From assembly GCA_050084515.1 (NCBI GenBank), contig CM114271.1, positions 30,504,001 to 30,568,000 of the forward strand: a stretch of 64,000 bases of DNA, read 5' to 3'. The notes beneath the pieces are model-generated. The model saw nothing but the letters and a program-made list of their open reading frames with translations. It was not told the DNA's origin and ran no database searches. Source of the stretch: Blasia pusilla. Its lineage: Eukaryota. Below, piece by piece: positions 705 through 51,905 of the stretch; position 1 is the stretch's first letter, and each line of letters opens with the position of its first letter. A program made the position numbers and the translations under genes.

Positions 705-2823
705 AATTAGTGGAATCCGTCCAAAAGAAATTTAGATGGAGAGATGAAGATTAGGCAATACCGAATTTATGATTGAAAGTTACTATAAGAAAAATTAAAA
801 AAAAAATTGAAAAGGAAAAGTGATGTATATGGCATCGGAAGAGATGGCTCAAGAATATGAATTTCTAATGTCCTTAAGGAGATGGCAAACGTATGTTGGG
901 GCGAAACAGTAAGGTAAAGAGTTGAAAGAGCAAGTAAGACTTTTGGGAGGAATTGACCTAAAATAAACCCGTACACAAAAATAGGCGCCTAAAGAGAAGG
1001 AAGAAAAACTAGAAAACCTACTTGATATCAAAAGAACCAGCTCGTCAAGACGATCGAAACAGGCCCAAACACATCCAAAACCGACATTCTAAAAGAAAGT
1101 TATGAAAAAAATTAGAAACACCAAAAAAGAGGATGTAAGGAGTAAGTGAGCCACCCACCAATGACCGCTATGAAGGAATGAGTTCGCAATGTTGGGCCCA
1201 GCTCGTATCAAAATATCCAGAAAAGCAAGAGGAATCCCTTAAATCGATGGTAACCTAGTATCACTCTAAAAGGAGAGCGCTATGTTTGAAATTACGTGTA
1301 GGAATCTATGAGCACATTTAGGAGAGAAGGAGGTCCAAAGATCCCAAGAACTTTGGAAAACTCAATCTTAAGTGGAAAAAAGAAGAACCCAAAGTTCAAA
1401 CTTGAGAAGATGAACACATTGGGCCTTAGATTGAAAAGATTGGATCACCATGGAAATAGTTAGAAACAAAATTCTAGACGTCCCTCCATCTCCTCCGCCA
1501 TAGTCCTCCTCCTCCATGTCTCCTCCCCATAAAGAATCCACATATTCACATACGGCTTCTCATAAGGAGCTCTATATGATAATCGGTTTTGTAGTAGAGC
1601 ATGGTTGGCCCATCTCGTTTGCAGATGCTTCTAGCATTTTAGAGCAAAGTTATTTTATATGATATAGCTACTAGGGATATTATTCTATGAGCCGTGTGAG
1701 TAGCATACACATACTACTCTTAAAGAAGGCCTCCATAAAAGGTTGTATCCAAAAGGAGGTGTAGGGACTTCTACCATTTTAGAGCAAACCTATTTCACAC
1801 TTCAAGGTATATCTCTACTTCAACTAGGCAGAGATAGAGGGGCTCATATTGGGGTCATGCTCCTAGGGTAGTGGCAAATTGGAAGGTTAGGACCTATTCA
1901 AAGAGGGATGGGAACCTTGGCTACTTTTCCTCGGTGATGGAAGTATTTGGTTGTGTCCATGCACATTTTGTGGAGATGCTTGAAACAATGAAGAGGAGGG
2001 AGTATGAATAAAGGGAATACATACCTTCTTCAAATGGTTGATTCATAACCTCCAACAAAATATTACATCAATCTTCAAATCTCGTGCTTGCCTTTATAAT
2101 GTCCGATTGGTCTTTGAATTATGTGAAAAATCCCTGTTTCCAAGAGGCACTAAGGATGGTTTCTAGATTAGGTTTTTCATCTCTTGGACCCTATCCGGAT
2201 TGGATGTGACCAAGAACTTAGCTTCAAGTTGGTGCAAGGACCATGTTGATCATAGAATTTCCAATAATAGCTGGACCAATTTCCGTGAAATGCCTCTTGT
2301 GAATATTTTGGTAGTATTCATGGGGAGGGAATGTTTCATTGAGGCCATTAATACCTTTGGCATAATTAAGAATACAAGATGGATAGGGGAAAGTACTATT
2401 TAGCATACCAATGAGATGGGCCCAAATAATTTTATTCAATTTGTCACAAAGAACACAAAAACTTTCAAGTTGACAAGTTCTTTTCTTATTGAAGCTCATC
2501 ATCATATTTTATGAGGCGCTTGTGCTGGTGATGGACTAGATTTGGTTTGTGAAGATTGGGGAACAATTGAATGTTTTTCAAATCTATTTCCTCAATGTCA
2601 TAATACGGTGAAATTTATCAAGAATTACCATGCTAGCCATTTTATGTTTTTGGACTTATTCTCTAACGGGTTGACCTTGCTTTTATCGAGGAAGAGAAGA
2701 TTTGCTTCTAATTATTTTGAGCTTTAACTATGTTTAAAACATATGGTGATTTAACTTAGTGATGAATTTGAGAATTTCACTATTGCTGTAAATGCAAAAA
2801 GCAAGGCTGGAGGTTGAGAGTCA

Positions 2824-2938
2824 GTTGTGCACATACACATCGTTACATAACAAACATCGTTGTCACCGAACACACACGATCACACGCTAACTCATGGCAT
2901 CCAAACAACGAGACAAGAAGTACCAAGATATCTCCAAT
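2824..2938 (-). repeat. Element 1 short repeat B2 (outermost), partner of B1 at ~3449-3569
   Basis: cacatacacatcg...ctaactcatggcatccaaacaacgagacaagaagtacca..atatctccaat is present on both sides of A2. Confidence 0.9.
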
Positions 2939-2940
2939 AA

Positions 2941-3436
2941 ATCAAGATCCAATCTTTCTCAACACCATAGCTCTCAAGCTATGTCTCTCTCAATGTCAAA
3001 CCAAACCCAATCTCCTAATGAGAGGCTTGGGTTACACACACAAGGCAAGCAAGACCATAACTCCGCCGTCTTATGCCAAGAGGTTCAACAAAGAGAGAAT
3101 GAGCTCTCAAGCTCTCTCACCTTAAGGCATACCCCTCCCCTCTCCTAAGCTCTCTCCCTGGTAACCTATGCTCCCAAGTCATCTCTTTAGCTCTTGACTT
3201 GATGTAGGAGGTCAAGGGCCACTTACCACAAATAGAAAGTCGACCATATAGTCAAAATGATACTTACCTGAAATAGCAGGTTCCTCAATATAGCTCCAAA
3301 TGAGCCGAAACAAAGGGAAAACTTGCTCTCTCAGGTTTCCCGGGGCCTCAACAGGTCATCCTCGACATCCTGATCTTGTCCTCCACTACTCGCGAAGGCG
3401 CTCTACTAGATCTGACCGAAGTATCCTAAAAGACGT
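2941..3436 (-). repeat. Element 1 second copy of terminal repeat (A2)
   Basis: Aligns by eye along its length to 12021-12558, with small indels. Confidence 0.92.
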
Positions 3437-3749
3437 CGCTACATCATACACATACACATCGCTACACAACATAGATCGATGTCATCGAACACACACACAA
3501 ACACACACGATCCCATGCTAACTCATGGCATCCAAACAACGAGACAAGAAGTACCAAAATATCTCCAATCGCCTCCCTAGTTGGTGGTTAGGTCCCTCTA
3601 ACTCCAGATAGCCATCTATCCCTACCTACCATGACATACATCTCTCGGACGCTAAGAGCAAGAAGATCGGGTGCTCATGTGGTCCCATCGTTAGTTGCCT
3701 TCTTGTCATCCATATCACAGACATAAGTTGGAATGTAGAAGTACATACT

Positions 3750-3893
3750 TTATGTATATCTAGGACATATCCATCTTCCCTGAGGAACCCTAGTGAGAGG
3801 TGGCGTCAAGCATGCCATATGCCATCCTCTCGAACATTCGTCATAGATTAGCATAGTGGTTGCACCACGCGCAGAACCACACAACATACATCG
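3750..3893 (-). pseudogene. PHD finger at element 1 integrase C-terminus
   Basis: CMLC..LIYDECSRGWHMACLTPPL..VPQGRWICPRY has C4HC3 spacing with two Cys>Tyr changes. Confidence 0.9.
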
Positions 3894-6800
3894 CAAGCCT
3901 ATACGAACTACTACTAAGCTTGGATCAACTGTATTGTAAATGTTTGGAAGGTGACACGGTGCAAAGTAACGCACATGGTCCTTCCAAACTATATCATTGC
4001 GTCCCTCCAATAAGAGAACACCTAATGGCAAAACCTCACGCACTCTCAAGATGGTGCGCCTTGAAGTTACATCCAACGTCGTGGGTGCCATCTCCTGCAA
4101 GTAGACATAGTCTCCCTAATGAAACCTATGGATAGTAGATCGATAATCACCTCCCCGAATAGTCGCACACCTCAACGTATCCCGATGTTGCACAATCGCC
4201 AAGTTCTCAAACGTCATGGGCATCACTCTCCCAAATAACTCAACCCTCTGAGAACATGCTCGCATCCATACATCAGGGTCATCAGGGTTCAACACCTCAC
4301 CTGTATCTCGACAAATGACCGTAGGTAAATCTGGCTCTTGGCCATAAAGCAACAAGAACGGTGAGAAAGACGCTAAGGATGCTTGCCTGCTGAATCTGTA
4401 TCCCATCGCCAACCATGGCAACTAAAGGTCCCAATCTCCTAGGTGACCTCTCTGCAAGCCATACTTTTGTAGTCCTCTCTTCACCATTTGCACAACCCGC
4501 TCCGCTAGTCCATCCGCCTCAGGATGATCTCGCGAAGTAGTGCGGTGGTTGATCAGTGTCTGATCACACAAGGCCTGAAACTCCCTGCGGAACTCAGACC
4601 TCGGTCATCAACACCTCATTTGGTGCTTTGAATGACTCAACACTTGATCTAGGAAGGCATACGCTACTCCCTCACTCGCTTTGTCAGGAAATGCAACCAA
4701 CTCTATCCACTTTGAGAAGTGCTCGAACATGACCAACACATAACGACTATGGCACTCCATCAAAGGCAAAGGTCGTGCAAAATCCAAACTCCATCTATAA
4801 CCTAAACCCATGATCGAAAGTGGATGCAACTATGGAGTAGGAGCATTGAACGATGCTTAGACTCGATCACACACCATCTATCTGGTAACAAATTGTTGAA
4901 TGTCAGTTTGCATGCCTCGCCACCAATACTGAATCTGGAGCAAGCTATATGTTGGCTTCACTCCAAAATGACCCATCTCCTCATGGGCATGACGCACCAA
5001 ATGCGCTCTCTACGAAGGATGAGGCACTACACGCACTCTACCATCCTCCCACACTCGCAACACATGTGTGCCCTCCCACCGGAACTGTCTGGCTCGCTAT
5101 AGGATCCGATCCCGCTCTTTAGCACTCATTGTGCTTGCGACGCTGCCAATACGTAGGTACTCCAAGACCACTCCATCGTCGTAAATATCTCGGCCACCTG
5201 TCGTCTCCTCACCGACCTCTGGATCTAAGGACTCTCCATCAGACCTCGTCATCGAAGTCTCAACAATCTCGCTCTCCATAGCCAACAAGCCCAAATAGGC
5301 TAACGCATGCCATCCTAGCACCAACTCCTCATCACTCTCACCATGCCAACGAGCTCCAATCGCATCTTGCAAACTCGGGCATGGGTTACGGCTCAAACCA
5401 TTTACATCCCAATTGAGCGTCCCAGGTCTATGCACCACGTCGAAGTCATACTCCTTCAACAAAAGAGCCCACCTCGCAAGCTTCCCTGTAAGCTTGTCGG
5501 ACTCTATCAACCACTTAAGTGGCTAATGATCAATAATAATGGTAAACAATTTGCTGAATAGATAACACCTGAGATGTGCAACAGCCCATAGCGTAGCCAA
5601 GAACTCATCCTCGTACGAGCTATACTTCACATCTGCATTGTTGTTTGAGCGACTAGCGTAAGCCACCACAAACTCTCTACCATCATTGTCATGTTGGGTG
5701 AGCACGGCTCCAAGCCCCAACATGCTCCAATCGATATGCAATTGGAAGGGACGGCCCCTGATTCATCTCCTCAATATAGGCGCGGACGTCAATCTGTACT
5801 TGGGCAGCTGAAATACTCTCTCTTGCTCATCCCCCCAGTGCCACTCTTGATCGAGCTCGGTCAGCAAGGTTAGCGGCTTTGCAATCAAACTGAAATCCTT
5901 GACGTACGGTCGAAAGAAGTTTGCCAATCCCATGAATGCACGAACCTGACTCACATCTGATGGGCGTGGAATGCGGGAAATAGCCTCTACCTTTGTCAGC
6001 TGCACACCAAGACCCCTTGGGTATATCTTATGATCCAAGTACTCAATCTGGTCGTAGAAGAACTTGCACTTGCATGGATGTAGCTTCAGCCCATGTAACT
6101 GCAATCGTCAAAATACCTCCTCTAGATGTCGCTCATGCTCCTGAACCTGGCGCTAAAGACTATGATGTCATCAATATAACACCTAGCAAAATCTAGACCT
6201 ACCAAGATCCTATACATGACCCTCTGAAACTCAACCGGGGCGTTCTTTAACCCGAATGGTAAGAACTGCCACTAGTACAAACAATCCTTCCTACAAGGAT
6301 CGATGCCCCAAAATTCCGTCTTCTTCCTGTCCACCAATCTAATAGGCAGCTGATGATATTTGGCTCGCAAATCCAATGAACTGAAAACCTTTGCATGCCC
6401 AATCACATCAAAGATCTCCTCGGGGTTGGGCATGGCATACCTATCAGACTTTGTCTCCAGATTGATAGATCGGTAATCTCCACATATCCGCCTATCCGTC
6501 AAGTTGCCATGCACATCCTTCTTGGCGGGCATGACAGTGGTAGATGCATACTCTCCATGCGACATCTACACTAGTTCTGCTCCAACCAAGTCTTGGCTCC
6601 TACTCTGAATCAGAGCCCTCTCCATGTGACAGTTCCTATAGGGTCGTCGGAAAATCGACGTGTCACTCGAAAACTCAATGTGGATCCCTAGACCCTTCAG
6701 CATACCTAAATCTTGCATGCTAAATGCAAAAAACTCCTATTACTCCTCACGAATTGATATATCTGGCGCCGTTCTCCTCATATCATCTTGGGGCCCATAT

Positions 6801-7149
6801 GTGGCTCCCAAGTCTCCATCCTGACTACGATAGGACTCTCTAGTGCGGATGTAGGTGGTTGCTATGTTACAAGCCACTCTCCTACAATCAAACTCGACTG
6901 CTCTCTTGCAGCCAACTGCAAACTCTCATCTCTAGGTGTAGTACCCAGAACCACGCTCAATGTTGTGGCCATCATCTCTTGGCGTACCTAAAAAACATCC
7001 CAAGAAGTCCAAGATTGTCTGACCCGATCATCCCTGGAGTATTGATCTCCTCGGGTCTCGCCCCCATCCACTACCTCAACCGTCTTAGTAGGCATGGGGC
7101 TCACCAAAGCAACACCTATGTCGCATCCTCAAACGAGGCTGCTCAGCTA

Positions 7150-8090
7150 CTCCTAAGCTGAAAATCCATATCAAGCAGTTCAAGACATGACGTCGTAATG
7201 CCTTTGATAGTGACGGTACTGCTTTCACTCCTGTGGGGAATCCCATCGCTCGCTCTTGCTCATCGGCGTTGGGCTCCACCAACCTCTGTACCTGGTCATC
7301 CCAAACCAAGCATGGTCCAGCCTCCTTGAATGCATAGGAATCGGGAAAACTCACAAATGTGGGAAAGGTTGCGCATGGCATGCCAATCCTCTTGACCACA
7401 GTCAACGGCGGTCGATCATCATGCCTCACTGCCTATGATCGATGGCCCAGATCCAATATAGAATCCACCAACAAATCGGAGGGGCGGTCCACTCTCGCAT
7501 ATGCCCTCCACAACACCTTGTGTAGTACCAAGTTGGTCCACCAAAGATGCGGGCAATATGCTCATAAACCCACACTCGCCGCATCCAAAAAAATTGCTGG
7601 GCCGATCCATGCGTACACCTGATGTGCACTCGTCATCACATGGGACCTCGAATTGCCCAAAATTGGTACGTTCTCCAGAATGTATGCTGGAGAACAAGAC
7701 CGATGCTCCTGCAAGTGTCGGAAGATCTGCATCATCTCCCAAAACAACCTAGACCGAGTGTCACCTAACCCGCTACCTCGTCCAACACTCAATTGGCCCT
7801 AATACGGCCAACCAGCAATGACCAAATCTATGGCCCCTACGCGCTCCAAGTCCTACATCCCCAACAATGAAATATCCCTCGGTAGGGAACTCTAGTATCC
7901 CTGGGCAGTAGATGCAGTCAAATAGTCGGGAAAATGGAGGCGTAAGTTCGCCACATGGTGAAGTGAAGAGCACCTCGCAACGTCATCAATCTCCACATAC
8001 ATGTACTATTGCACGGGTACTCCTGCTTGCAAAACAACAACTAACCCAGTATTGATCCCTCCAAAGAGTTCTAACACCCAAATACCCTCC
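7150..8090 (-). pseudogene. DNMT3-like C5 cytosine methyltransferase domain in element 1 pol (inactivated)
   Basis: Motif I VLELFGGI (~8055-8078); YVEID; motif IV LVIAGWPY*G (decayed PCQG); SRLFWE; motif VI ILENVP; LWWTNL; motif IX EQERAMGFP. Confidence 0.88.
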
Positions 8091-9137
8091 TCTGGGAAGC
8101 ACCACACAATCGGGGTGATGTCCTAAGGGGTCATAGCAGCACTCCTGGCTACTTGGGGTTCCTCTGACCCGTCACACTTTGGTGCAAACGTCTTGCTCCA
8201 CGTGGTCTGCATATGCTTAGTGGCTAAGCGTTGAAGCTCCTTAGTCGAGCCCCAAAGTGGCACCTCTTCTCCACAGACTGATGCGGCTACCATGACACTC
8301 CTCTCCATAGAAATGTCACGAATGGGAGTATCCTATGTATGGACATGTCTTCAATCAAATCACTACGCCAAGTCCCCATCTCTCTTGGCCATCACTTGAT
8401 CCTTGCATCAGTGAATCGAACAAGTAATGAGCTAAGGCACCCATCATCTGACTGCCATCCTGGTCTGTAGGATGCTAACTCCTCCCAGTAATCCACGGAA
8501 AGCCCCATCGGATATAACACTACTCCACCAACCAAGACGTCGTAGGACTCTACATCAATGACTATCGCCTTGGCTCGCACCACAGACTCATTTGTAGGAT
8601 ATCCTGGATGAATCCTCACCACAACCTCGCTCCATCCAAGGATGTCTATATGTGGAATGTACAACGCTCCATATCGACTCTTGTCAAGCCCAATCCTCTG
8701 AATGACGCTTTCCCCAACATCAGGGGTTGCGCTCCTCAATCCAACTCCACGCTCACAAAGCGTAGCGGCCAACCGGAACAGCTCGACGAGTGCACCTCCC
8801 AATGTCATAACATCGGAAGTAGAAAAAATTTGAGCACAATACACCATCGTGCCCCCCAACATCGTTCTCAACACATGCTTCTCTTGAGCATCAGCAATAG
8901 GAGTTGTCGCACTCATTTCTCCCCTTGCCCTCCGTGCCTGCACACCAATAACATCACCAACTCTTCGGGAACTCTGATCAGGACCCATTGATGAGGTCCT
9001 CAACGCCTCGGACAGCGTGAAAGAATGAGGAAGCCTGTCTATTTCCTGGCTTCCCCTCGCTATGGATCCACCTCCTTGTTCCCCAACGCGACCACGTGGT
9101 GCATGATCTCTAGGCCCACCCAGACCGGCTACTCGCT

Positions 9138-10269
9138 CTAGTGCCCTCTTTGGCCCCCGATCCGGACATAATTGAGGGTGTAAACAGAAACACCTAGCGC
9201 GTGTATGATCATATCTCTAACAATGTCACATTGATAACCTCTTGGTGGAGCACCATCTCCTACTTCATGCTGAGGCACACATCCATGACCGTGAAAAGTG
9301 CAATCGCGTTGATGATGGGCTCCACCACATGACCAACAAGTAATCATAGGCGGCTGCTGTTGAGCCGTATATGAAGAACCGGGTCTTTATGGCATGACCT
9401 CCCGGTATCCGCCCTGAGCTCATGGTGCCATTGTCGACCTATCTTGGAGTCCACGTTGCTGCATAGGTGGTGCAGGAAATCGTGACTGCTCTCGCCTAGA
9501 ACCCATGGTGGCTACGCTCTCATTCGCCATGTTGCACTCAATGTACTTGCGCTCCTAATCTCTCAACATAGGTGAGGTGTTTATAGAAGAACCCCCTCGT
9601 GCACCCGTGTCCATAGGGTCCGGTCCAGCATCGCGTACCATGATTGGATAGCCTGAGCCTCTATCACCCCCTAAGTGACGTTGATTAACCGGCGCAAGCG
9701 AGTTTAAGCCTCACGCAAACTCTCACCCGGGCGCCTCTAGAAGTCGTGGATGCTCGGCAACCTCTCTGTTCGTACCTCCAGGTGGCTTGCCCTCAACTCA
9801 CCGAAGAACTCAACCACGAGGTTGAACCTGGGACAAACCCAACTGGATGGTGCAACTACTCTACTGCGAGTTATCCCTCCTAAAACATAACTGGTGGATG
9901 AGGAAGTAGCCTCTCTTGACTCCTCCTCCTCATCTGGGAACGGCTCCGTCCATGATACATAGTGTGGGTCATAGTAGAGTCGCCATGCCTCAATCTCTTG
10001 TGCATATCTGTGGGAGAACTCATGGTAGTTGTCCATGGGTGCCTCCCGTCTAAATACTCGAACATACCGTTCCATGCTGTAAACGGGTTGAACTCTCTAG
10101 ATTTCCTAGCCCGCTGTGTGTTGCACCAACTCCTAAACTCCGCAATGTGGTCATGCAACTCTTTCATGCCTACTGCACTTGAGAACCTACGCAGTCCTCT
10201 ATCCCGGTCGTCCATCTCGTACGCCCAAGTAGTAGAACTACTCAATGTGAGTGGCAAAGCACTACTCAT
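9138..10269 (-). pseudogene. gag: Element 1 gag (frameshifted)
   Basis: GLRRFSSAVG..FRSWCN..FNPF matches element 2 gag; zinc knuckle CWSCGGAHHQRDC. Confidence 0.85.
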
Positions 10270-12020
10270 TTCCTCTACGCCCTCCTCCTCGTCTGCAGAT
10301 TACACAAAAGGAGGTCAAGGTGGTCCCGCACGTGGAGACCCTCGAAACCTCGCGCCAACCCTCTAGAGCTACTCTCTGGTCCACCACCTTGCCTCTCAAA
10401 GTCCCCAAAGGACGCCGAGATTATCCTCGTGCCCCCCTCACACGATCACTCTCAACCTCGCGAGTAATCAGGCAATCAGTCAATCTAACATGCGGCACTT
10501 AAACTACACTCTCTCACCGAGACGTGTGTTGTGCGGCAACAAATGGCGTGGTGCGGCAAATCAACTGATCTATAGTCTCATTGATAAACCATCCTCAACT
10601 TTGGACATCCCACACAGGTCCATATCCCCTCAACCCATAAGTCATCAATGCTCTCAGCATTAGCACGAAACCCAATATCCCAAATAACTTCCCAATACCG
10701 GGAACTCCCTCACACGTGCAGGGTAAGAGACCAAAATGGGTAACCTGACAATAATGTCGATGTCACTCCTCGACAACTGCAAATCTCAACCCCAACTCGT
10801 TCGTGAAGACAACTCCTCCAATCAGCAAGTCGTACTCCTCTCGTACTGACACTTTTGAAACCTCCTCAATATGCGGTGGGGATCTAGCGGTACGGTACGG
10901 TGCGGCTCTGGCGGCACGGAACGGCTACAGAACCGCACAACACTTGATAATGGGATGCGGCACTCCGCAGCATATGCTCCTCAATCAGCTATACACACGC
11001 ATTGCTCCTTAGTGAAGGAGCGGCTCTGCGATTGAGATGGTGCGGCGCAGCCACGAGCAGCACGCTGCGGCTACCGGCGTCACGCCACGGTACTTGATCG
11101 TCCTCGAGCGGCTACCAATCCCAACATAGCATAATGAAATGAAAACTCAAACACCATAACCCGAGATCACCTGCCATCATCGGTTGATGACGAAATAACA
11201 ATGACGCTCATGGCCAAAACAAAGTACGTGGTGGCGGCGCAAGTCAGAGAATCAGCGGTTGTCGTGGAAGACCCTCCACTCCGTAATGGCGGCAATGGCA
11301 ACCAAGGATGGAAAACGGCCGAACACAGCTCTAAGCAACGCTAGGTGGCGGCGGCGGCCGTAGTGGACGATGGACCATTGACGGTGACGGCGGACCATTG
11401 ATGGTAATAGTTGACCCTCGATGGCGGACCATTGAAGATGACGGCAACGGCCACCGCCGGCGCGGTGGCTAGTTTAGGGTTTGAACAATTTTACCCTAAA
11501 AATTTCCTAGCAATGCCAGTTTTGCAAGATTGACCATAACATTTTGCTCGCAACTCCAAATTGCGCACTGTCTATTGCACAGCGTGCACAACTTCACAAT
11601 CTACGACGGCATCAAAAGAGTTATAAATCAGACATTCCAGTAAAAATTGACAGGGATTGTCGTAAAGCCCAACGTCTCTTTCTCCTACACAAAATTTGGC
11701 AGCACTTCTGCATTGATTTCTCCCAACGAAATTTTAAAACCTGTGAAAAATCAAAAAGCTACATGGTGCTCTTGAGAGCACCGACATGGGGAAATTTTCC
11801 CCCATACTCAATCCCTATAAAAAATTGGGCAACACTTTCGCGCGCCACTCTTCCACACGAAAAATCGGCAAAGAAAACATAAAAGATGAGCGGCTTCGGC
11901 TCCGGTGAGCACTCCCATGAACCGTTGAACAAGGAATAGGATCCCCAACCTGCAAAACCAACGAGTGACTAGCGAGCTCCTCCATGAAGCTCTCTCACTC
12001 ATCTCATTCTCTCTTTGTAC

Positions 12021-12558
12021 ATCAAGATCCAATCTCTCTCAACACCATAGCTCTCAAATGTGTGCACTCTCACATGTATCTCTCAATGTCAAACCAAACC
12101 CACTCTCCTAATGAGAGGCTTGGGTTACACACACAAGGCAAGCAAGACCATAGCTCCGCCGTCTTATGCCAAGATGTTCAACAAAGAGAGAGTGAGCTCT
12201 CAAACTCTCTCTTTCCTTGAGGTATACCCCTCCCTTCTCCCAAGCTCTCTCCATGGTAACCTATGCTCCGAAGTCACCTCCTTGGCTCTTGACCTAATGT
12301 AGGAGGTCAAGGGCTATTTACCAGAAATATAAATTCGACCATATACTCAAAATGGTACTTACCTAAAATAGTAAGTTCCTCAATATTGCTCAAAATGAGC
12401 CGAAACGAAGGGAAAACCTGCTCTATCACATTTTTGGGGACTTCAGCATGTCATCCTCCACCTCATGAGCCTGTCCTCCACGACCTCATGAGCATGTCCT
12501 CCACTACTCGTGAAGGCGCTCTACTAGATCTCACTGATCTATCCTAAAAGACGTGACA
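12021..12558 (-). repeat. Element 1 5' terminal repeat (A1)
   Basis: Direct repeat of 2941-3436 (atcaagatccaatc...atcctaaaagacgt); starts with TG on the minus strand. Confidence 0.92.
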
Positions 12559-15500
12559 AGTCTCTAGAGAACAATATTAGATACTAGATTTTAGGCCAAA
12601 GTTCATGATCTTTGGAATATTTTTTGAAGTTTATACGTGGATAAGATTGGTGCATGCATGGTTGTAATTATGAAGGAAATTTACTATTGAACTTGATGTT
12701 TTAAGGATAAGGTGTAGGATACCTCAAATAAGCCTAATCATGTTAGTGATCTGAATACTAAGGATGTTTCCAATAAGATGGCCAAGGGAAGGTGGAGGGA
12801 ATAGAATCCTTTTTTGCAATATTTGGCTTAATCATAATTATTTCTTTTTAAATGAGCATAAGCAACATATTTTTGTTTTTGAGTGTATGCAAGGCCTTAG
12901 AGACTATTTCAACCTATGGGGAAGATACATGTTGGAATTAAGATGTGATGATGTACAATATTTTTAAGTCATGTGAATTTTCTTATAAAGCATAATACCA
13001 TCCATTGCTAAGAGGGTAATTTTTAGTTGGATGGTTGTGAATTCTTTGCAAGAACTCGAAAAGGGTATGAATGGTGGATGGTTCATGGAGACCAGGGTCC
13101 CAATTTATAAAGCATGGGCATATTGTTAGGCTTATGTATCTTAATGTAGATAGTGAATTGGGTGCCAAATAGGTGGGGTGCATGATAGTTGTGGGGGCGC
13201 CGAAAAGTGAGTGTTTGGGTCATTGGAGCTCATAGAGTTTTCATCAACTTTTGGGTTTTCGATGGATGTGGAGCCAAACCTTGTTCTAGTTATGAAATTT
13301 TCTCAAAATTCTAGGGTCTTTTTTTATCAAGAGAAACCCATATATTTAATAGGGACAAGAACTTGGTTCTGTTTGTAACATTCAATTCCAAACAAAGAAT
13401 ATTAGAATTGTATCCTTGTTGTATGTCTTTATAACCATATATGATAGTTATTTTAGAATTGTATGTATCTGATGCCATATATCTATATCTATTATTATGG
13501 GAGAGTGCCATCTTGATTTTTGAACACGTCTCCTTATGCCACTTGACACTCTTAGCCAACATTTTTTTGGCGCGCATCCTTAGGGTCACTTTACGGTTGG
13601 TTAAGTTGTTTGGTCACATCTTTATGGTCAATTTAAATTATCTATCATTTCTAACACAAGCATAGAGTAGTTATTACTGTTTTAGAATTTTGTGCCTTTC
13701 TTCTAATGCCTGATAGCTATTTTATAATTGTGTGCATGATGTATATAATATCCATGCACTTGACAAGATGAAAGGAGCGCACATTCCCAAACATGACCAA
13801 CTTGAAGATACTACCATAAATCTCTAAGTCTTTGTGCTACAAAGAAGATAAAAATAGAGTGGCTAAGAAAAAAGCACAAAAAAAGTGAATCAACATGAAG
13901 AAGAAATTAGAAGAAAAATACTATGCGCTCATTTGAGAGGCATGGGGAATCCGCACCCCCTCTCTGAATTTACCGTGCGTGTTGTGTTCTAAAACTCTTC
14001 ACAAAGTCTTAAAAATACAAAAAAAACTAGAATAAATCATAACGGTGGATATGTGAGAGCACACTCCGACTAAAAAAGGAGGTGTTGTGGCACAATAATA
14101 AACCTCTATTTAAAAAAACCTATTTATATTTGGAGCTATAAAGAAGCGTTTGAAGAGGAGATTCGTCTTGAATCTCCTCTGGATCGAATCTCCTATGTTC
14201 CCTTAAATAGGCAGCTCCTTTTGGCCTTACCAAAGGCCGAAAATTAAAGGGGCTACCTAAAACCAACAGACACTTGAAATTAGGGGAAAAAGAAACTAAG
14301 AGCCCTTGAAAATTTTTTTCCCACCAATTAAGTGCAAGATTCGGACCGAACCGGCATTCTTTTACAAGGTCACCGGTTCTGAGAAGGGAATCCATCTGGT
14401 CTTTGAATTATATTGCTAGTGTTAGCACACGGCCATCACATTGCTTGGAACGTTGGAAAAGAAATATAACTATATGCAGAGTAAGCGGCTATGTTTCCGA
14501 TAGGATTTGAAGGAGGCAAGAATTGGCATGCGTCTATAGGGAGTTGTCGGGGAAATCTGGGGAGAGGGGGGGAAGAGGGGGGGATCAAGGGTATACAAGG
14601 CCCGATATGGTCCATGCTGCCCAATCTGGGCTCGAATCTGGGCCGTTGAGAGGGCGGAAGGCGAGGGGGTGGTGGGGTTGGGAAGGTGGAACTTAGGGCT
14701 CAAAGAAGCCGGCTCGCACCACTCTGATGGCCATGACAAATAGTGGAGCTCTTTGGAGTCTGGAGAGAGAGTCTCTGCAAACTGTCCTTCATAGTCATTT
14801 TGCGATTATTGCTTCGTAGTGTGTTGAGTCTGATCCCTGAGGCCCTCCGCTCACATTTTTGCTGCAATTTTTTCTCCTGAGTCTACTCTACAATCTCCGA
14901 TCACATTGCTGCTACAATTTCTGCTCCTGGGTATGCTTCTGCAACTTGTATTGTTGTGTAGTTCTCACTCCCTCGAACTTACTGCTCTGCAATCTCTGCT
15001 CATATTACTTATTGTTGCTTAGTGACTCGTGCTCAGTTCCTTGATTTTTCTTTTTGTAGGTGTTATTTTCTATGGAGCATTGCAAGGTTGGGGTTGGGAT
15101 CCTGGGGACCTAGGTTACATGTGATTTTTATCCCTTGTAAGATTGTGGGGTGTGAGGGGTCGAGACTTGGGTTGTTGGCTTGACACTACACCTTCTTTGT
15201 GGGGCCCCATTGTTTCTCTTTCCACAGCACGCCGCCACATCGCATTGCAGGGCTCAGCCTCATTTCTTGAGCTATGGTTTCTTTGGCAAGGCCTCAATAA
15301 TCTCTCTTGTGAGAGTAATAGGCTATGCATTTGCCATGGAGATTGCCTTCATCTTGTTATCATTTCATTTCCTTGCTCTCCATTGTGGAAGGTTGCCTAC
15401 TTTATTTAAGTTTCTTGCATAGGGCTCGCTAGCTATATCTCTTGCTGGCTTTCATTCTCTTAGTGTACATTTGCACAGTCGTGGTTGTATGATTTTTTGA

Positions 15501-15570: not shown

Positions 15571-17090
15571 ATGGAGAGTAATTCGAGTAAGAGACAGAGA
15601 TCACTTATAGATTTAGGGTTCAATAAAAACAAGAACCATACAACTTGCCCGTAGAAGATGACATTGTAGATGATTTGAAAAGTGATGACATGGATTCTAT
15701 AGAGCCTCTTTAATCAAGGATTGAAGAAATTTTTTTGGGAGAGATGCATGGTACTCTGCCTTTGAATGGATTGAGTTTGAGTCCCCCACTAGACGAGTAT
15801 TTTGTGAGATATATAGAGATAGCAAAGGAAGATCAGCCTTTGCCACTTATGGGGCAATAAATGTGAAAATATTAGCCTTCACAGATCATGGGAAATCCAA
15901 GGAACATGCATACGCTAGATTAGCTTGGGCCTACCATAGTGGGAAGAAAAGAATTGAAAAAGCCATTGCCTCATCCAATAGAGCATGTGATGAAGCTTAG
16001 TTAACCCTCCTTTGAGGTGCTTTCTTTGTTGCAAACCAAAACATTGCATTCTGATGCTTCCTTAGCCTTTTTTAGTTATTGAAGGTTGTTTCTACCACGT
16101 ACCACAACTAAGAGCATGTCCAAGGATTGTAAAGCTTGTGCATTGATGGTACCATGTATCAACTTATAGACTTCTGGTAGACGAGAGTATTGATATCTTT
16201 GTAAGAGGTCATCTCGTAGCCTTTGCTACTTACATAGACGAGGGGCAAGTAGTCACATCTTTTCTAGGGTTGATTCAGGTTGAGAACAAGGATGCAGACT
16301 CCATTTCAAATTATATATTGTCTTTCTTGCAAGAATGGGACTTGGATTTAGATCGTTTGGTGGGGTTTGGCTCTGATGGAGCTAGTACAATGATTGGATC
16401 ACGAAATGGTTTCTTTGCTAGGTTGAAGAGGAATGTGAGTCTTTCTTACTAAACTCCATTGTGTTGTTGCACATAGGACTAACCTAGCTGCCCTTGCTCC
16501 AGCGAAAAGTTGTGTTGGTAAGGAAATGAGGTGGATAATCTTCTAAATTCAATTGCTCTTTACTTTAAGAGGAGCTCTAAATGAAAGTCTACATTGACTT
16601 CGATTCAAGTAGAGTTGAATGACTCTTGAAAGTGTATGAAACGTTATCATAAGATGAGGTGGCTTAGTAGATGGCAAGCAGTAACAACATTGTGTTGTAG
16701 TTTGGTGTCTGTCTTAGTACACTTTCAAGAGGTTGATCTTAAAGATGATGATGGAGTGGTAGTTTCTTTATTTCAGAAGTTAAGATTGTTCAAAATTATT
16801 TATTGTCTTTACTTCTTGGCTGACATTCTACATTCTATGCCTAGCCTCAGCAAAATATTTCAGATGAAATTTGTAGATATTACTACTGTGGCTTCCATTT
16901 TTAGCATTAAGATTGCACATGTTCAGATGAATTATATTCATGAGAGCATAGATATGAATGCCCAACTAGTTTCCTTATGTAGTGGTTTTCATTTGATTCC
17001 AAATTATGGACCAACGCATGGGTATTTGAAGCGTCTATAATCTGAAATTCGGGGAAGTTTCTTCCATTCCATCCAAATGGAGAGAGATAT
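15571..17090 (+). pseudogene. hAT-superfamily (ZNF862-like) transposase relic 1, 3'-truncated
   Basis: FGSDGASTMIG, HC..HRTNLA, RWLSRWQAV and LYFLADIL motifs, broken by stops and frameshifts. Confidence 0.85.
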
Positions 17091-18950: not shown

Positions 18951-21124
18951 ATGGCCAAAAGAAAGAATTATTGTGCAAGGAGGTTCCAAAGGCACAACCA
19001 AAGATCATGGTTCTGTCAGGATCATTGATGAGAAGGAAGAGGAGAGTACATTTGCAAAAAATTGAGAAGCCTGGAGGGATGTTTGGTACACCATGTATGA
19101 TTGGATCACGTTTGATTCTTCGATTGGAACAATAAATTGTAATATTTGTAGAAAAGGCAAAGGTAAGAATGTCTTTGCAAGGGAGGGTGCCATCAATTGT
19201 AAGGTGTCTTCCTTCATTGATCATGCAAAGTCCAATGAGCATATCAAGTTAGCTTGGGTAACTAATGGAGGCAAAAAATCCATGGCCAAGGCCATTGTTA
19301 CATCCAATGGAACATGTGAGGTAGCTTTGCTCGCTTTAATTAGGTGTGCCTATTTCCTTGCGAAGGAGGGTATGCCTTTCTCAAAGTTCACGAGTGTTTG
19401 TGAGCTGATGCTTTCTATGAATGCACCTATTACTAAAGCTCTTTACCAGGATAAGATAGGTTGCAGTAAAATGTGTTTTTGTATAAGTTAAGATCTGCTC
19501 AAAAGGACCTTGTTCAAGCATCACCATTCTTTGGAATTATGATTGATGAATCTATTGATATATTTGTAATAGGTCATTAGGTAGTCTTTGCAACCTTCAT
19601 AGAAGATAGTCAAGCAGAGTTTTGTTTTTTAGAATTGCTTCATTGCGAGTCTAAGTGTTCTAATGCTATCACTAATAGTTTGTTAGAGTTGCTTAAAGAT
19701 GGGGGGCTAGACTTTTCTAGAATGGTATATTTCGGGTCAATGGAGCCCTCCTCAATGGTAGGGAGCCAAAATGGGGTGGCTTCACAATTGAAGAAAAAGG
19801 TAAGTCCGTTCATTCTTTCAGTGCATTGTGTTACTCATAAGACAAACCTTATAGCTCTCACAGCTGCTAAAGCAAGTTACTGCAAATCGATTTCCATAGA
19901 AGTAGATTCTATTCTCAATGTTGTAGCAGGGTATTTCAAGAGGTCATCCAAATGAAAATCTGTTCTAGCTTCTCTACAAGAGAAGATGAATGACTCCCAA
20001 AGAGTCATGAAAAGATATCATAAGATCCGATGGTTGTCATGATGGCAAGCTGTATCCACTTTGTGTGATTCACTAGAATGTGTTTTAACTTATTTTAGGG
20101 ACATTTCCCCTTCAAAAGATGATGGGAATGTTGTAAACTTGTATAACAAGTTAAGATCATTTAGTATGATCTATCAATTATACTTCTTGGCTCATATTCT
20201 TTCTATGTTGGCTAATTTAAGCAAGATATTTCACAACAAATTTTTTGATATGAGTACAATTGGCAGCATTGTTAGCTTTGAGATTGTTGTTATTATTGTG
20301 AATTTTATGATGGAGATTCATGGCTTGGATGCATCTACTTTTTCAGAGGATACAGCTTATCATATTCTACCAAACTTTGGACCTCCGGGGTGGCTATCTC
20401 ATAAGCTTACAATATGAAATTAGAGGGAGGAAGTTCCATAGTATAGACATGATTAGGATCGCACATGCAAGGATTTAGAAGCTGCTCTATTGTTTCAGAA
20501 GAGTTATGTTGAGAGTGTTTGTATCGCTTTGCAAGAAGAGATTTAGAGACAATAATCTTATTGATGCAATGAAAATCCTGAACCCCTTGCACTTGCCTTC
20601 TAGACAAGTAGGACTCATAAGTTGGGGATGTAAGGATATAGAAGATTTGTGTGCACATTTATTTACCACTAAAGGGGCATTTGCAACCTTCTATCATAAA
20701 TTCTATTGCTGTCAAGAAAGAATTCCAACCCTTCAAGTTGATGGCGAAAATTGAGTCGAAAGATCGTAATTTTAGGGATCTGTGAGCAATGGTGAGTAGG
20801 AGTCCATCTTCACAATGCAAGTTTGCAAACTTTCTGGTGTTGGCTAATGTTGCGAAGGTTTAATGTGTGAGTACAGCAATTTATGAGAGAGCATTCTCAA
20901 TTGAGAACATGATAAAGAGTAAATGTAGGAATAGACTAGGGAGTAAGCATTTAGATGTTGTTCTCAGAATTGCTTTAGAAGGCCTTGCTACTGACTATGA
21001 GGATATGCTTGTTGAATCTGTAATTCTCTGGAAAACTTATGCCAGCTTGAGATACCCAGATAGATATCTTTCTCCTCAAGTAGAAGTTGAAGGCGTTACA
21101 ACTTCTATTGACTTGTCTTCCTGA
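18951..21124 (+). pseudogene. hAT-superfamily (ZNF862-like) transposase relic 2, near full length
   Basis: N-terminal W..YDWITFD..CNICR zinc finger, MIDES, HCVTHK, RWLS, and hAT dimerisation-type STAIYERAFS..IKSKCRNRL; several stops. Confidence 0.88.
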
Positions 21125-21739: not shown

Positions 21740-23660
21740 TTAATTTAGCACTTCATTATATACAACATTCATAGTGTAAATACCTGTTTTGTTAGTAGCA
21801 TTTTCATTATCTGTCATAATATGAATAGAATTCCTAGAGCCTACTCTTGACAAGGCAACATACAATTGCCCATGAGAAAATACTGGATTGGGCAAGTAAA
21901 TACCAACTCTATCTAATGTTTGACCTTGAGACTTATTAATAGTCATTGCAAAGGCAAGACGGATAGGAAATTGAAATCTTTGTAAATCAAAAGGTAGGTC
22001 GGAATCAGAAGCAATCAATGGAATGCGTGGAATGAAAACTCGGGCTCCAATGTTTTTTCCCGTGATAATTGTTGCATCTATAAGATGTCGACTAAAGCCA
22101 GCTATCACCAATCGAGTCACGTTTGCTTGTCCCTTTGCTCCATTCATATTCCGTAATAGCATTATCCAAACTCCAATCTTCAAAGTCAAACAATGAGGTG
22201 GCAATCCAGATGGTAAACATGTATTCAAGTTAGCCGTTGCATGTATTGAAGTTGCCGTTGTATTCAAGTTCAATGCAACGGCTAACTTGAACGGCAACGT
22301 TGAACTCGTAGGAGAGCTCTTCCTCTTCTAGACGTGAAATAGATAAATCACGAGCTTGGTTGAGGCATGTCGGGGAAGTCCGCCATACTTTTACCATGAT
22401 CTTGAAGATGGTAATGGACCTCCAATAACGCAAGATTAATAATATGAACATCCAATGGAAGGGTCGGAATACCAATTCTCTATTACAAGGAACAAATATA
22501 GAAGTTAAAACGTAAATAAAGTATCTAAAATATTCATAAGAAAAATAAGAAAAAAATTGACTCAACAAAAGCCATGCATATTACCTCACGCCTTTTATGT
22601 AGAAGATCTTCTGTCAATGGAACCAAAAAATGTTCCCACACCATAGCTGGAAGGGAAGGTGTATTATATAGAAGAAAAATGGCAAAGAGTAGACGTAATG
22701 AATAGCCAGTACGAATGACAACCGCCTCTTCAAAGCAAGAAAAGATCTCTCTATCGTCCTCCAAAAGTCCCATCTGAATAGCGATCTCTTTGAAGGTAGG
22801 ATAAACTACACCATCGATGGTTCTCAAATCTTGATATGATTGAGCTCCTCTCAAATGATGGAGAAGTAATCGTAACCAATGACGCTCCCCTTCAGCTAGG
22901 ATTAGCAACAAGAAAAGTATTAGGAAGGAAGCATGAATATGATTTTAACATTAACTCAATTTTTTCCTTAATAATTGTATCTTAACAAAGAATAGAAAGT
23001 TTACCTGGATTTGTCATATACAGACGTCCAATAGGATGTCCACGTCCTTTTCGTGCACGTTTACGCGGATGCCATTGCTTCTTATTCCAAGAGTAATGAG
23101 AAGGGAACTCCAAATAAAGATATTGTCCCGTAGTCGAATCAGAAATATTTGTTGCAAACCATTGAGTGAGAGTGGTTTCCTTACTTCGCTCCAGAATATT
23201 ACCCAATGAATCTTGCCCATGAAAATATACCATTTGACTGTCTCGAAGATGAACAATCAATCTCACAATACTTGGTTGCTCTGCATGTAGACTAAACTTG
23301 AAGATTCGCCAACATGCCTCTGAAGAAAAAACGTACCTTCATACCACACAATATAAATATTGTTAGAGTCCCACATAATATCATAGGAAAAATTGGGAGA
23401 TCTTGAAAGATAGAAGGGATCAAAATATCTTGCATCAAGATATGATGATGTCTCATCAATAGTATCCTCTCTTGATATAGTATTTGCCAAGGTATATGAT
23501 ATGGCATCAGATCCTTTGTACACATACTTATAAAAGTACTTTACTGCCAAGATGCTATTTGTTATCTCCTGATTGATATGCAATCAAATAAAGTACATAA
23601 CATTGGATTGTATGGAACCACCCAACGATTATCAAAGTCATGATTTGACTTATTTATCAA
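21740..23660 (-). pseudogene. Helitron Rep/PIF1-helicase fragments (intron-split, deleted)
   Basis: DNRWVVPYNP, KYFYKYVYKG and LRLLLHHLRGAQSYQDLRT (Rep region); FPIRLAFAMTINKSQGQTL and VFSHGQLYVALSRV (PIF1 C-terminal motifs). No Walker A or HUH motif seen. Confidence 0.92.
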
Positions 23661-43756: not shown

Positions 43757-44504
43757 TATACCATAGGCGCTTTCTTCTCAGTAAAAATAGTATTTCTGGA
43801 ACTATCCGTCCACCGTAGGAGTGTTGTAGAAGCCCTAAAAAGTATTCTCTTTTCCTTTCAATTCAACGCTACCACGAGAAATTTGAGTATGGGAAGAGGT
43901 TAATAGCGGAAAAGAAAAAGGGGAAAACCACTAAAATATAGGAGGATCGTGAGGTGTAAATGGGATGCACTTTTCTTTCATAAAATATAGTTGTAGGCTT
44001 CACATGTTGGTATAAATAAAGCCTTGTTTTAAAAAACGATTGAGTGCAATTCTTAGATTTGTGAAATGACTACATTCCATTTTTCTTAGTTTCTTTCGTC
44101 ATGGTCAACAAGTCATCTGGCTCTGAAAGACCTCAACATGAAAGTTGTCAGAAACGACGTTCCTGACACAATGGACCTATCCTCAACCTCATCAGACACC
44201 ATGGGACAAAGTTACACTCAAGATAGTCCGCTGGCTCCTACGCCCTATCCACGATAGATCTCGGCCTATCAGCTACTCAGATGTGATAGTTGTCGTGCGC
44301 ATACATATCGCTACACAACATACATCGCTTGTCACATCTACACCACATAACATCGATCTTCCCCACACACGGGTCGATCCACACATGTACAAAAATCAAC
44401 TCATACATATACATGGAGATCACACAACCGCCCCCCTAGCTGGCAGTTGGATCCCCCCAACTCCAGATAGAAAATATCACATCTCTCTAACATGACCTAC
44501 TACC

Positions 44505-44646
44505 CTATACACATCTCGGACACATCCATGGTCTCGTGGGAACCACATCAAGAGGGGGGGTCAGACATGACATATGCCACCCTCGAGAACAACCATCACA
44601 TACCAACATGGTGGCCGCACCCCTCGCAGATTCGCACAACATACAC
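44505..44646 (-). other. Intact PHD finger (C4HC3) at element 2 integrase C-terminus
   Basis: Manual translation gives CMLCESARGAATMLVCDGCSRGWHMSCLTPPLDVVPTRPWMCPRCV*. Confidence 0.93.
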
Positions 44647-47600: not shown

Positions 47601-47899
47601 GTGACCTTACTCGTAGAGGACGCAACCTCCGGCTTTGGTTGCTATGTAGCAACCCTAGCCACCTCCGCAACAGCCACTCCACTATGATCTCCTACACCAT
47701 GCTCCGCATCCAAAAAATGAACATGTGCTACTCTAGCCGCCTTTGCACTCTCTGCTCAAACAACGTCCCAAGAAGTCCATGGGTGCCTATCTCTCCTCGT
47801 CTCGCCCCCAGCCAATGCCTCTACAGACCCTGTAGGAAATGGTCCAACTCGTGGACGTGACGGCATGGATGACACTCGCATCCGTCTCTCCTCAGCCAT

Positions 47900-48860
47900 A
47901 CTTAGGCTGACTATCCATGTGAGACAGTTGAGGTCCATCGCCTCCCCCAACACCTATCTCTGGGATGCCTTAGTCATCCCTGGCACCGCCGTAGTACTGG
48001 TAGCAAACCCCATGGCGTGCTCGCGCTCATCTGTTGTAGGCTCCTCCAATGCGCCGGTCACCTCATCCCAAATCATGCATGGCCCTCCCTGACGAAAGGC
48101 ATGGGATGCTGGGAAGCTCACCAACGTAGGTAAGGCTACCCTCAACTCCCCCACCCTATTGGCCCTGGCCAACGGTGGTCTATCATCCCGTGTCACCACA
48201 AGAGATCGATGCATTGAGCCCAAAATAGCATCCACTGTGAGATGTGGTGCTCTCTAGACTCCATCGTATGCTCGACTAAGTACCTCTGAAGGTATCAGGT
48301 TCGTCCACCACAGTCGTGGACGATGGGCACGTGATCCAACTCTCGCCGCATCTTATAACACAGCAGGTCCCAACCAGGACCTCACCTGATGCACACTCGT
48401 CATCACACGTGCACGAGTGTCTCCCAACAACGGCACGTTCTCCAAAATGTACGTTGGAGAACATGTCTGACTCTCTTGCAAGTGTTGTACTACTCGCAAC
48501 ATCTCCCAAAACATCCCTGACCTCGGATCCTGCAATCCAAATCCTTGGCCAGTTGATGAATGACCCTGACATGGCCATCCAGCAATCACCAAATGAATGG
48601 TGCCAACTTTATCCAGATCTTGCGCCCCCACCAAAGAGATGTCGGCGGGTAGTGTATGCTGATATCCACGTACTGCAGATACCGGCAACAACTCAGGATA
48701 CCTCTGGACCAATCGTGCCAGGTGACGTAATGATACTCGCCGCGCAGTCTCATCTCTCTCCACATAAAGGTAGTGATGCATCCGTATGCCCGCCTGCAAT
48801 ATTGCAGCAAATCTGGTGATAATCCCTCCGAAGAGATCTAATACCCTAACACCCTCCTTT
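47900..48860 (-). pseudogene. DNMT3-like C5 cytosine methyltransferase domain in element 2 pol (catalytic motifs intact, 3 in-frame stops)
   Basis: I RVLDLFGGI; II YVERD; III ADIS; IV LVIAGWPCQG; SGMFWE; VI ILENV; VIII AHRPRLWWTNL; IX EREHAMGF; X VLGEAM. Confidence 0.95.
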
Positions 48861-51800: not shown

Positions 51801-51905
51801 TTTGGGGACTCGGGGGACTCGGAGCCGACCAAATCAACTAGATCGGAACCGCTTCCTCCTCCCTCCCGAGCATCAAGCCCGGGACCCAGCAGCAGATATT
51901 TCCCA

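Follow-up and report, generated by a model that had tools for sequence, protein, structure and literature searches.

Two anciently diverged Ty3/gypsy-type retrotransposon lineages of the liverwort Blasia pusilla very probably retained a DNMT3-type methyltransferase domain within Pol

DNMT3-related cytosine methyltransferases have been described as parts of retrotransposon Pol proteins. The gypsy element KnitGypsy-Dnmt3 of the streptophyte alga Klebsormidium nitens carries such a domain within Pol, is present in few copies and, with a Ka/Ks < 0.2, shows purifying selection on the domain, according to the accessible text of de Mendoza et al. 2018 (PMC5890265). The same text reports on SymbioDIRS-Dnmt3 of Symbiodinium, likewise with a DNMT3-type domain in Pol and purifying selection, and with de novo CG methylation in yeast; this element differs in being a DIRS element with a tyrosine recombinase in a dinoflagellate host, and the authors see an independent capture. 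The EpiLTRs of Cymbomonas and Euglena (bioRxiv 10.64898/2026.05.21.726589) are also long terminal repeat (LTR) elements with a cytosine methyltransferase and a chromatin reader, but, as far as the available part of this preprint goes, their methyltransferase is sister to DNMT4, lies at the 3' end of pol and is accompanied by an adenine methyltransferase and a chromodomain; the authors describe them as distinct from Gypsy-DNMT3 and use the phrase 'streptophytes (Gypsy-DNMT3)'. Here, we report on two elements with a DNMT3-type domain, element 1 and element 2, in a stretch of 64,000 nucleotides from Blasia pusilla (GenBank assembly GCA_050084515.1, contig CM114271.1, positions 30,504,001 to 30,568,000), which we refer to as the window and on which all coordinates are based. 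Our analysis makes it highly probable that positions 7085-8310 represent a decayed DNMT3-type domain that is integral to the Pol of an old and dead Ty3/gypsy-type element (element 1) in a large-genome liverwort, that element 2 belongs to an anciently diverged lineage with the same layout, and that both are of the Gypsy-DNMT3 kind.

A previous reading of the window from its letters alone (the sequence-only reading) had placed a methyltransferase of element 1 at 7085-8310 on account of five motifs, and had proposed the same order of protease, DNMT and reverse transcriptase (RT) for both elements. All five motifs (VLELFGGI, IAGWPY*G with a stop codon at the asterisk, ILENVP, WWTNL and EQERAMGFP) were recovered in one minus-strand frame at 8098-7085, and the proposed span agrees with the domain as delimited here at 7124-8332 on the minus strand, based on motifs, tblastn and alignment to element 2; the order was confirmed in both elements by tblastn and Pfam. 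In tblastn, the Marchantia Gag-PR-DNMT protein P0003 (PR, protease) matched 8332-7127 with 50% identity over 413 columns and a joint E of 1e-133 for the match set. The respective domain of element 2 at 47873-49105 (minus strand), which is in the same frame as the RT, was recognised by Pfam (PF00145, E 5e-10), by its motifs and by a structural model. It has four in-frame stops and keeps LFGGI, PCQ, ENV, HRPRLWWTN, EREHAMGF and LGEAMD. Motif I (LFGGI) is found in both elements and in most relatives, and the ILENVP of motif VI in both elements. The catalytic Pro-Cys-Gln of motif IV, which is PCQ in element 2 and PCQ or ECQ in most relatives, is changed to PY-stop in element 1, and the HRPRLWWTN of element 2 is degraded to YCPHLWWTN. 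With regard to motifs IX and X, EREHAMGF and VLGEAMDLNC of element 2 were aligned to residues 245-286 of DNMT3A; element 1 retains EQERAMGF and has lost six codons, and thus six residues, of the motif X block.

The aligned region of the element 1 domain contains seven in-frame stops. As its sequence stands, this copy cannot be an active enzyme, and both copies are dead, i.e. pseudogenes. The density of stops in element 1 is similar inside the domain (7 in about 400 codons) and over the remaining part of pol (13 in about 850); decay of the domain therefore went hand in hand with that of pol and did not precede it. Six of the seven stops of the domain (7435-8125) are TAG, where element 2 has CAG (twice), CAA, CAC, CTG and CTT, and the seventh is a TGA opposite CGT. 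Most of the element 1 stops would accordingly be C-to-T changes at the first codon base, a pattern that is unpolarised and only suggestive. CpG depletion was considered as a signature of 5-methylcytosine deamination and rejected, as the observed/expected ratios of the two elements (0.75 and 0.73) lie between those of the host-gene region (0.87) and of the AT-rich flanks (0.46-0.63) and are not distinctive. In the 40 rows listed, element 1 has 13 well-supported private sites with T or A, 10 of them in CHH context (H standing for A, C or T); no clear methylation context was found at these private sites, and we draw nothing from the CHH count.

In order to assign the methyltransferase to a type, sequence and structure searches were combined. 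The element 2 domain as a single query matched DNMT3B, DNMT3A and DNMT3C at E of about 1e-6. A profile of the family matched DNMT3A (4e-26) and DNMT3B (1e-23), followed by plant DRM (1.6e-16 to 5e-14), M.HhaI (6e-9) and DNMT2 (4e-6), with no DNMT1 chain among the 54 matches listed; the profile alignment comprised three stretches, corresponding to motif I, motifs IV-VIII and motifs IX-X, respectively. An AlphaFold model of the element 2 domain, calculated from a 31-row alignment, reached a predicted local distance difference test score (pLDDT) of 85.1 and a predicted template modelling score (pTM) of 0.81, with the first 64 residues disordered and the rest not. The top matches of this model in Foldseek were all DNMT3B, DNMT3A or DNMT3C, with target-normalised template modelling (TM) scores of 0.77-0.84 for catalytic-domain chains. 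As modelled, the domain is a DNMT3-type C5 cytosine methyltransferase with a complete predicted fold, for which DNMT3 is the nearest among the solved structures. The catalytic Cys is kept in at least 163 of 176 rows of relatives, as judged by the ten commonest triplets listed (PCQ in 82 and ECQ in 68 rows). The animal DNMT3A, DNMT3B and DNMT3C catalytic domains are the best matches in both sequence and fold, and motifs I, IV, VI, VIII, IX and X could all be aligned to them. Unlike these enzymes, with which it shares about 19% identity in structural alignments, the element domain lacks PWWP and ADD readers, forms part of a polyprotein, where a low-confidence linker of about 80 residues precedes it, and is longer (about 330 residues compared to about 285).

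Element 1 as a whole, a decayed Ty3/gypsy-type retrotransposon of the Gypsy-DNMT3 kind, extends from about 2827 to 12559 on the minus strand, as all of its parts do, based on its LTR pair, read depth and read joints. Reads of one whole-genome sequencing (WGS) run, of which about 1% or about 1966 million letters was read, and of three RNA runs, all with the same species label, were mapped on 1000-15000 at a likeness of at least 85%. The WGS read depth jumped from below 1 to hundreds or thousands exactly within 2827-12559, and read joints at 2827 and 12558/12559 marked the ends. The terminal repeats of element 1 were recognised by self-blastn and local alignment and are about 500 nt long and 86-90% identical, corresponding to an LTR-LTR difference of 10-14%: the 5' repeat (A1, 12018-12554) is 86.2% identical to 2938-3386 over 464 blastn columns, and its alignment with the 3' repeat (A2, 2938-3436), when extended to 3436/12554, matches in 448 of 499 columns. 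The gag region at 9010-10200 was found by tblastn to residues 9-393 of Marchantia P0003 in three frames; within it, the translation of the open reading frame (ORF) 9138-9386 contains a CX2CX3HX4C knuckle-like motif. The aspartic protease remnant at 8413-8750 was found by tblastn of the relative P0202, whose residues 763-849 are Pfam Asp_protease_2; this stretch maps to 8744-8413 in element 1 and to 49685-49404 in element 2. The active-site block of the element 1 protease reads ELD-stop-GAQP, the frame changes between 8631 and 8625, and a Pfam scan of the window ORF 8392-9216 in this region gave no match. On the other side of the DNMT domain, the RT at 6152-6730 has two stops (PF00078, E 1.2e-12) and is followed at 3765-6146, in a single frame with stops, by RNase H, the integrase with its H2C2 zinc domain and rve core, and a C-terminal PHD finger. 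Pfam recognised PF17917 (1.1e-29), PF17921 (4.5e-13) and PF00628 (1e-6) in this region, rve being under the Pfam cutoff with an E of 5.8e-4.

Element 2, on the minus strand as well, is bounded by a 3' terminal repeat of 187 nt at 44102-44288 and a 5' terminal repeat at 60816-61002, which are 96.8% identical and thus differ by 3.2%. Its gag at 57712-59246 was found by tblastn of P0003 residues 1-490; the CX2CX3HX4C pattern is visible in the gag ORF here, too, and Pfam gave no gag family. The protease remnant at 49214-49688, with the active-site block LLDSEAQP, was found by tblastn of relatives. The RT at 46790-47641 is an open ORF of 283 aa (PF00078, E 3.4e-31), and RNase H, integrase and PHD finger follow at 44514-46796 with several frame changes and stops, as seen by Pfam (PF17917 2.6e-29, rve 1.1e-10, PHD 7.9e-12) and tblastn. 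Two inserts split gag from pol in element 2, an AT-rich one at about 49.7-50.96 kb and a nested plus-strand Ty3/gypsy element at about 51.7-57.7 kb. The nested element (about 51700-57750) is without DNMT, has long open ORFs of 387, 420, 177 and 284 aa, with no Pfam match for the last (56881-57735) or for the gag-like first one, and looks younger than the element 2 around it; no terminal repeats were found for it at about 51.7-57.7 kb. In addition, the 5' terminal repeat of element 2 adjoins a tandem array at 60975-62900, whose units of about 205 bp are 62-84% alike.

In both elements, protease, RT, RNase H and integrase are present in this order with the DNMT between protease and RT, and the predicted order over the entire coding region is gag, protease, DNMT, RT, RNase H, integrase and PHD finger. 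The PHD finger ends the integrase in both elements (3759-3899, E 1e-6, and 44514-44654, E 7.9e-12). Chromoviruses have a chromodomain at this end of the integrase. A histone-tail reader combined with a DNMT3 domain is reminiscent of host DNMT3 with its ADD and catalytic domains.

We then compared the two elements domain by domain, using the method of Nei and Gojobori (NG86) on codon alignments with bootstrap ranges. The DNMT domains are 52% identical at the amino acid level (392 codons), with a ratio of the proportions of nonsynonymous and synonymous differences (pN/pS) of 0.45 (0.38-0.52) and a ratio of the corrected rates (dN/dS) of 0.21 (0.13-0.30), where dS is saturated and dN/dS approximate. 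The respective values for identity, pN/pS and dN/dS were 74%, 0.18 and 0.08 for the RT, 71%, 0.24 and 0.12 for RNase H, and 73-74%, 0.23-0.24 and 0.09-0.12 for the integrase; the DNMT protein evolves about 2-3 times faster than RT or integrase. After subtraction of the LTR-calibrated neutral decay, the DNMT ratio was 0.17-0.18. The pN/pS was 0.42 in the catalytic core (316 codons) and 0.56 in the preceding linker of about 80 residues, and only two indels, both in frame and of 2 and 6 codons, separate the two DNMTs. The DNMT was clearly constrained, i.e. under purifying selection, while the two lineages diverged; this selection applies to the ancestors and not to the two dead copies themselves.

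The same comparison bears on the possibility that elements 1 and 2 are one family whose members differ by decay since insertion. Such an origin would fit with both copies being pseudogenes with many stops and with nucleotide blocks of the two elements that still align at 71-83%. The synonymous differences between the elements, however, amount to a pS of 0.61-0.81 in every domain, which is near saturation and several times the LTR-LTR differences (10-14% and 3.2%), and pN is only 0.12-0.17 in RT and integrase; since neutral decay would strike both classes of sites equally, this asymmetry refutes a common family. In addition, local alignment of the element 1 LTR to each end of element 2 gave scores of 11 and 15, no better than shuffled LTR controls with means of 11.4 and 10.7 and maxima of 19 and 15. 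A single family is therefore hardly tenable. The sequence-only reading had stated that the LTRs of the two elements do not align and that their proteins differ at many residues, as is the case, and had proposed that the domain was retained under selection across the divergence of the families. The latter proposal agrees with the low dN/dS, the in-frame indels and the shared clade support described below: the two copies are far from identical once decay is corrected, and the dN/dS of the methyltransferase is well below 1.

In order to place these lineages, we searched for relatives of the domain. A word-indexed search with the element 2 DNMT yielded 36 proteins of 418-1330 residues, including about 20 Marchantia polymorpha gene models (36-72% identity) as well as proteins of Calypogeia fissa and Sphagnum, and a search among longer proteins yielded 19, including the K. 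nitens Pol KFL_009030040 (P0208; E 4e-48, 42% identity). When 1.84 billion cluster representatives were searched exhaustively by HMMER, 2692 proteins matched at E ≤ 0.001, of which 731 reached ≤ 1e-10 and 223 reached ≤ 1e-30. Domains were located by phmmer in 211 fetched proteins, among which two architectures were found, with the DNMT either upstream of the RT or between RNase H and integrase. The former group (labelled PR-DNMT, DNMT-RT or DNMT-RT-RH-INT, where RH is RNase H and INT is integrase) includes the Marchantia and K. nitens proteins: Marchantia P0009 has protease, DNMT, RT and RNase H in a single protein, P0047 a CCHC knuckle (PF00098) followed by DNMT, RT, RNase H and integrase, and K. 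nitens P0208 the order DNMT-RT-RNase H-integrase. The latter group, RT-RH-DNMT-INT, comprises 43 proteins plus partial forms, one of which is the 'pol' of Scenedesmus sp. PABB004 (P0058); P0043 and P0070 also belong here, as do many environmental sequences, and this group is the larger of the two. Pfam confirmed both orders on 24 long relatives, 14 of which have a PHD finger behind the integrase. In annotation, Pol fragments of this kind can readily pass for host DNA methyltransferase genes, and some public records carry such names.

The two architectures are separated in the trees. In a DNMT tree of 177 rows, one branch with a support of 99 in the Shimodaira-Hasegawa-like approximate likelihood ratio test (SH-aLRT) splits 47 rows with the DNMT upstream of the RT from 82 rows with the DNMT after RNase H with zero exceptions, the remaining 48 rows (DNMT alone) being uninformative on architecture. 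In an RT tree of 56 rows holding both domains, with the DNMT-less nested gypsy as outgroup, one change of architecture suffices; the support for the branch is weak (77), and none of 500 shuffles required as few changes. The Scenedesmus-type elements (RT-RNase H-DNMT-integrase-PHD) share with elements 1 and 2 a homologous DNMT (E down to 1e-62), a gypsy pol and the PHD finger at the end of the integrase, but have the DNMT after RNase H instead of before the RT and are separated from them by the deepest branch of either tree. In a DNMT tree of 46 rows, both window copies share a 20-row clade (100/100) with copies from Calypogeia, Sphagnum and Marchantia and lie outside a 16-row group (97/97) in which these three genera are found; the bryophyte copies belong to a 40-row clade whose sister is K. 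nitens P0208 (98/87). In the comparison of RT and DNMT trees suggested by the sequence-only reading, run here on the proteins of relatives, both trees place the window copies with Marchantia in fully supported clades. The RT path length between elements 1 and 2 is 0.35, and those from each of them to Marchantia are 0.32 and 0.34, so that the split between the two window lineages and that from the Marchantia family appear to be of about the same age. Marchantia and Sphagnum copies are separated by a shorter path in the DNMT tree than the two copies of this window, which could reflect slow evolution or horizontal transfer between bryophyte lineages.

These trees also speak to the question of whether the DNMT was captured independently in each lineage, or moved by nested insertion or recombination, with its shared position being a coincidence. 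Retrotransposons took up DNMTs several times, as stated in the accessible text of de Mendoza et al. 2018 (PMC5890265), and other elements of the green lineage have a homologous DNMT elsewhere, namely between RNase H and integrase, both of which would favour such a history. Set against this, the two elements share the position and frame of the domain with each other and with the proteins of Marchantia and K. nitens, DNMT and RT trees both group the window copies with Marchantia with full support, one branch divides the architectures (47 versus 82 rows) and the RT tree needs one change only, and the read depth is unbroken across the domain. We consider independent capture very unlikely.

The elements of the window resemble KnitGypsy-Dnmt3 in carrying a DNMT3-type domain within a gypsy-type Pol and in the selection on it (ratio about 0.2). 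K. nitens P0208, presumably one of the published copies, has the same order as the bryophyte elements and is homologous to them at E 4e-48. The differences to K. nitens are the land-plant host, a liverwort, the presence of two old lineages in one genome and a DNMT that is about 42% identical, as well as an element 1 family of about a thousand or more copy-equivalents compared to few copies in the alga's genome, as given in the available text. This text contains no Marchantia, liverworts, mosses or Sphagnum and uses 'bryophyte' once, for a host DNMT3 (PMC5890265). A 2025 paper and a 2026 preprint of the same group mention retrotransposon DNMT3 in 'streptophytes' in passing, as far as the accessible parts of these sources go, and our literature search, whose coverage left out most subscription papers, found no description of bryophyte members or of the second architecture beyond those mentions. 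With the elements described here, the known Gypsy-DNMT3 kind gains a host group and two old lineages; they do not constitute a new kind.

Element 1 also has an unusual repeat layout. A short repeat just inside its 3' terminal repeat (B1, 3441-3565, minus strand) and another one beyond it (B2, 2827-2937, minus strand) were recognised by their alignment to each other, which is almost column for column except for a 12-nt gap. A 21-nt motif that occurs three times in the window (zero expected) flanks the 3' repeat of element 1 on both sides and lies just inside that of element 2. In sense direction, element 1 thus reads A1-internal-B1-A2-B2, a split direct repeat. Joints from B to A (3569 to 12021/12024) were seen in 239 DNA reads and the depth of the family begins at 2827; the split-repeat layout therefore holds family-wide. 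An element with a DDE integrase would not usually have such a layout. According to the legend of Fig. 4c in de Mendoza et al. 2018 (PMC5890265), the repeat structure of the K. nitens elements is that of a DIRS element, and the split repeat of element 1 may correspond to it, the comparison being by the wording of this legend alone.

The mapped reads further allowed us to assess the abundance and expression of the element 1 family. The summed WGS depth was about 0.1-0.8 over the unique flanks, about 600-2300 inside element 1 and 790-1200 over the DNMT, which puts the family at about a thousand or more copy-equivalents, a rough figure since the flank depth is from few reads; a flank depth of about 0.5 suggests a host genome of several gigabases. 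Only 188 of 119,908 mapped DNA reads were at least 99% like the element 1 copy and 83,100 were less than 90% like it, so the family is large and old. RNA reads spanned the whole of element 1 in all three runs, with a depth over the DNMT of 13-41 per run. First mates mapped to the plus strand 5 to 100 times more often than to the minus strand, and the RNA of the family is probably minus strand, the sense strand of the element, provided that the libraries are of the usual stranded type. Per RNA run, only two or three reads were at least 99% like the element 1 copy, and the transcripts therefore come from other copies of the family. At the frame breaks of element 1 near 6147 and at 8348-8350, about a third to half of the family reads differ from it, so these breaks are not common to all copies.

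A number of observations weigh against our assignment. The PF00145 match of element 1, obtained by scanning the DNMT in frame with stops read through as X, has an E of only 8.5e-4 in this decayed copy and, at 19.3 bits, is under the 22-bit cutoff. Pfam gave no protease or gag family in either element, and a check by eye of the ends of both elements recognised no target-site duplication, primer-binding site or polypurine tract; TG..CA ends were not recognised by eye in either of them, the copies being old and the element 1 ends carrying an extra repeat. Several bootstrap replicates of the saturated dS could not be corrected, and the sense-strand assignment of the RNA depends on the library type. 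Element 2 has its 187-nt repeat and only the inner copy of B (44289-44420), with no distal B. In the 46-row DNMT tree, elements 1 and 2 pair weakly (71/88), and the 177-row tree, a quick one, put element 1 within the Calypogeia-Sphagnum-Marchantia group (SH-aLRT 95), which the 46-row tree did not. Finally, KnitGypsy-Dnmt3 gave no detectable methylation in yeast, a result that the authors call inconclusive in the accessible text, as human DNMT3B failed as well (PMC5890265). With this sole published assay being negative, catalytic activity of the Gypsy-DNMT3 class is unproven.

As for the use of the domain, the explanation that we prefer is self-methylation, to be taken as a tentative proposal, possible rather than probable. 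Methylation of an element's own new DNA was put forward for DIRS elements by the authors of the 2018 paper, in the part of it that is accessible (PMC5890265). Live copies would make the DNMT as part of Pol, from which it would be freed by the adjoining protease or kept tethered to the RT. The enzyme would carry out de novo methylation of the newly made cDNA or of a fresh insertion of its own element, and the new copy would thereby enter the maintenance-methylation state of the host at once. The outcome may be less damage to the host, or unmethylated extrachromosomal DNA may be hidden from host surveillance. The PHD finger of the integrase might steer insertion by reading histone H3 tails.

Alternatively, the domain may have been kept for something other than methylating its own DNA, such as RNA methylation, a DNA- or S-adenosylmethionine-binding scaffold function in Pol, or action in trans on host chromatin or rival elements. 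The negative yeast assay of KnitGypsy-Dnmt3 is in line with this, as is the faster evolution of the DNMT protein in comparison to RT and integrase, and the authors of the assay themselves raise RNA methylation for another transposon-borne DNMT, along with a scenario of host benefit, in the text available (PMC5890265). The family, however, conserves the full set of DNA C5 motifs, with catalytic Cys, ENV and HRxRxxWTN block among them, its nearest solved relatives are DNMT3A, DNMT3B and DNMT3C, far ahead of the tRNA enzyme DNMT2 (E 4e-6), and the human DNMT3B failed in the same yeast assay. We regard another role as unlikely. A more far-reaching scenario covers the green lineage: all of its gypsy elements with DNMT3 and a PHD-ended integrase would go back to one ancient capture with one relocation within pol, the land-plant enzyme would be active on the element's own new DNA or on host DNA in trans, and the families of large-genome liverworts, with about a thousand copies or more and being transcribed, would constitute a hidden source of de novo methylation. 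At present, this larger scenario is speculative and rather improbable.

The remainder of the window, which has an overall G+C content of 44% and is rich in transposons, contains a host F-box/leucine-rich repeat (LRR) gene at 33.3-34.7 kb with best matches in the liverworts Marchantia paleacea, Riccia fluitans, R. sorocarpa and Calypogeia fissa (64-66% identity), which points to a liverwort as host. Two diverged remnants of transposase-like genes are found on the plus strand at 15725-17040 and 19066-20417, both with a zf-C17orf113 zinc finger (E 4.8e-8 and 9.2e-13, respectively) and only the first with DUF4371 (E 2.3e-8). Fragments of a Pif1-type helicase, as in Helitron-like elements, are located on the minus strand at 21740-23338 (Pif1 2B domain, E 3.9e-12).

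Cytosine methylation is the main route of transposon silencing in plants. A transposon with a de novo methyltransferase of its own is paradoxical, and the purpose of such an enzyme has been a question since 2018. The Gypsy-DNMT3 kind is now found in land plants, where selection maintained the domain in at least two old lineages and one family is abundant and transcribed in a large-genome liverwort. With many related gene models in the genetically tractable Marchantia polymorpha, the question of what these elements use the enzyme for becomes testable.

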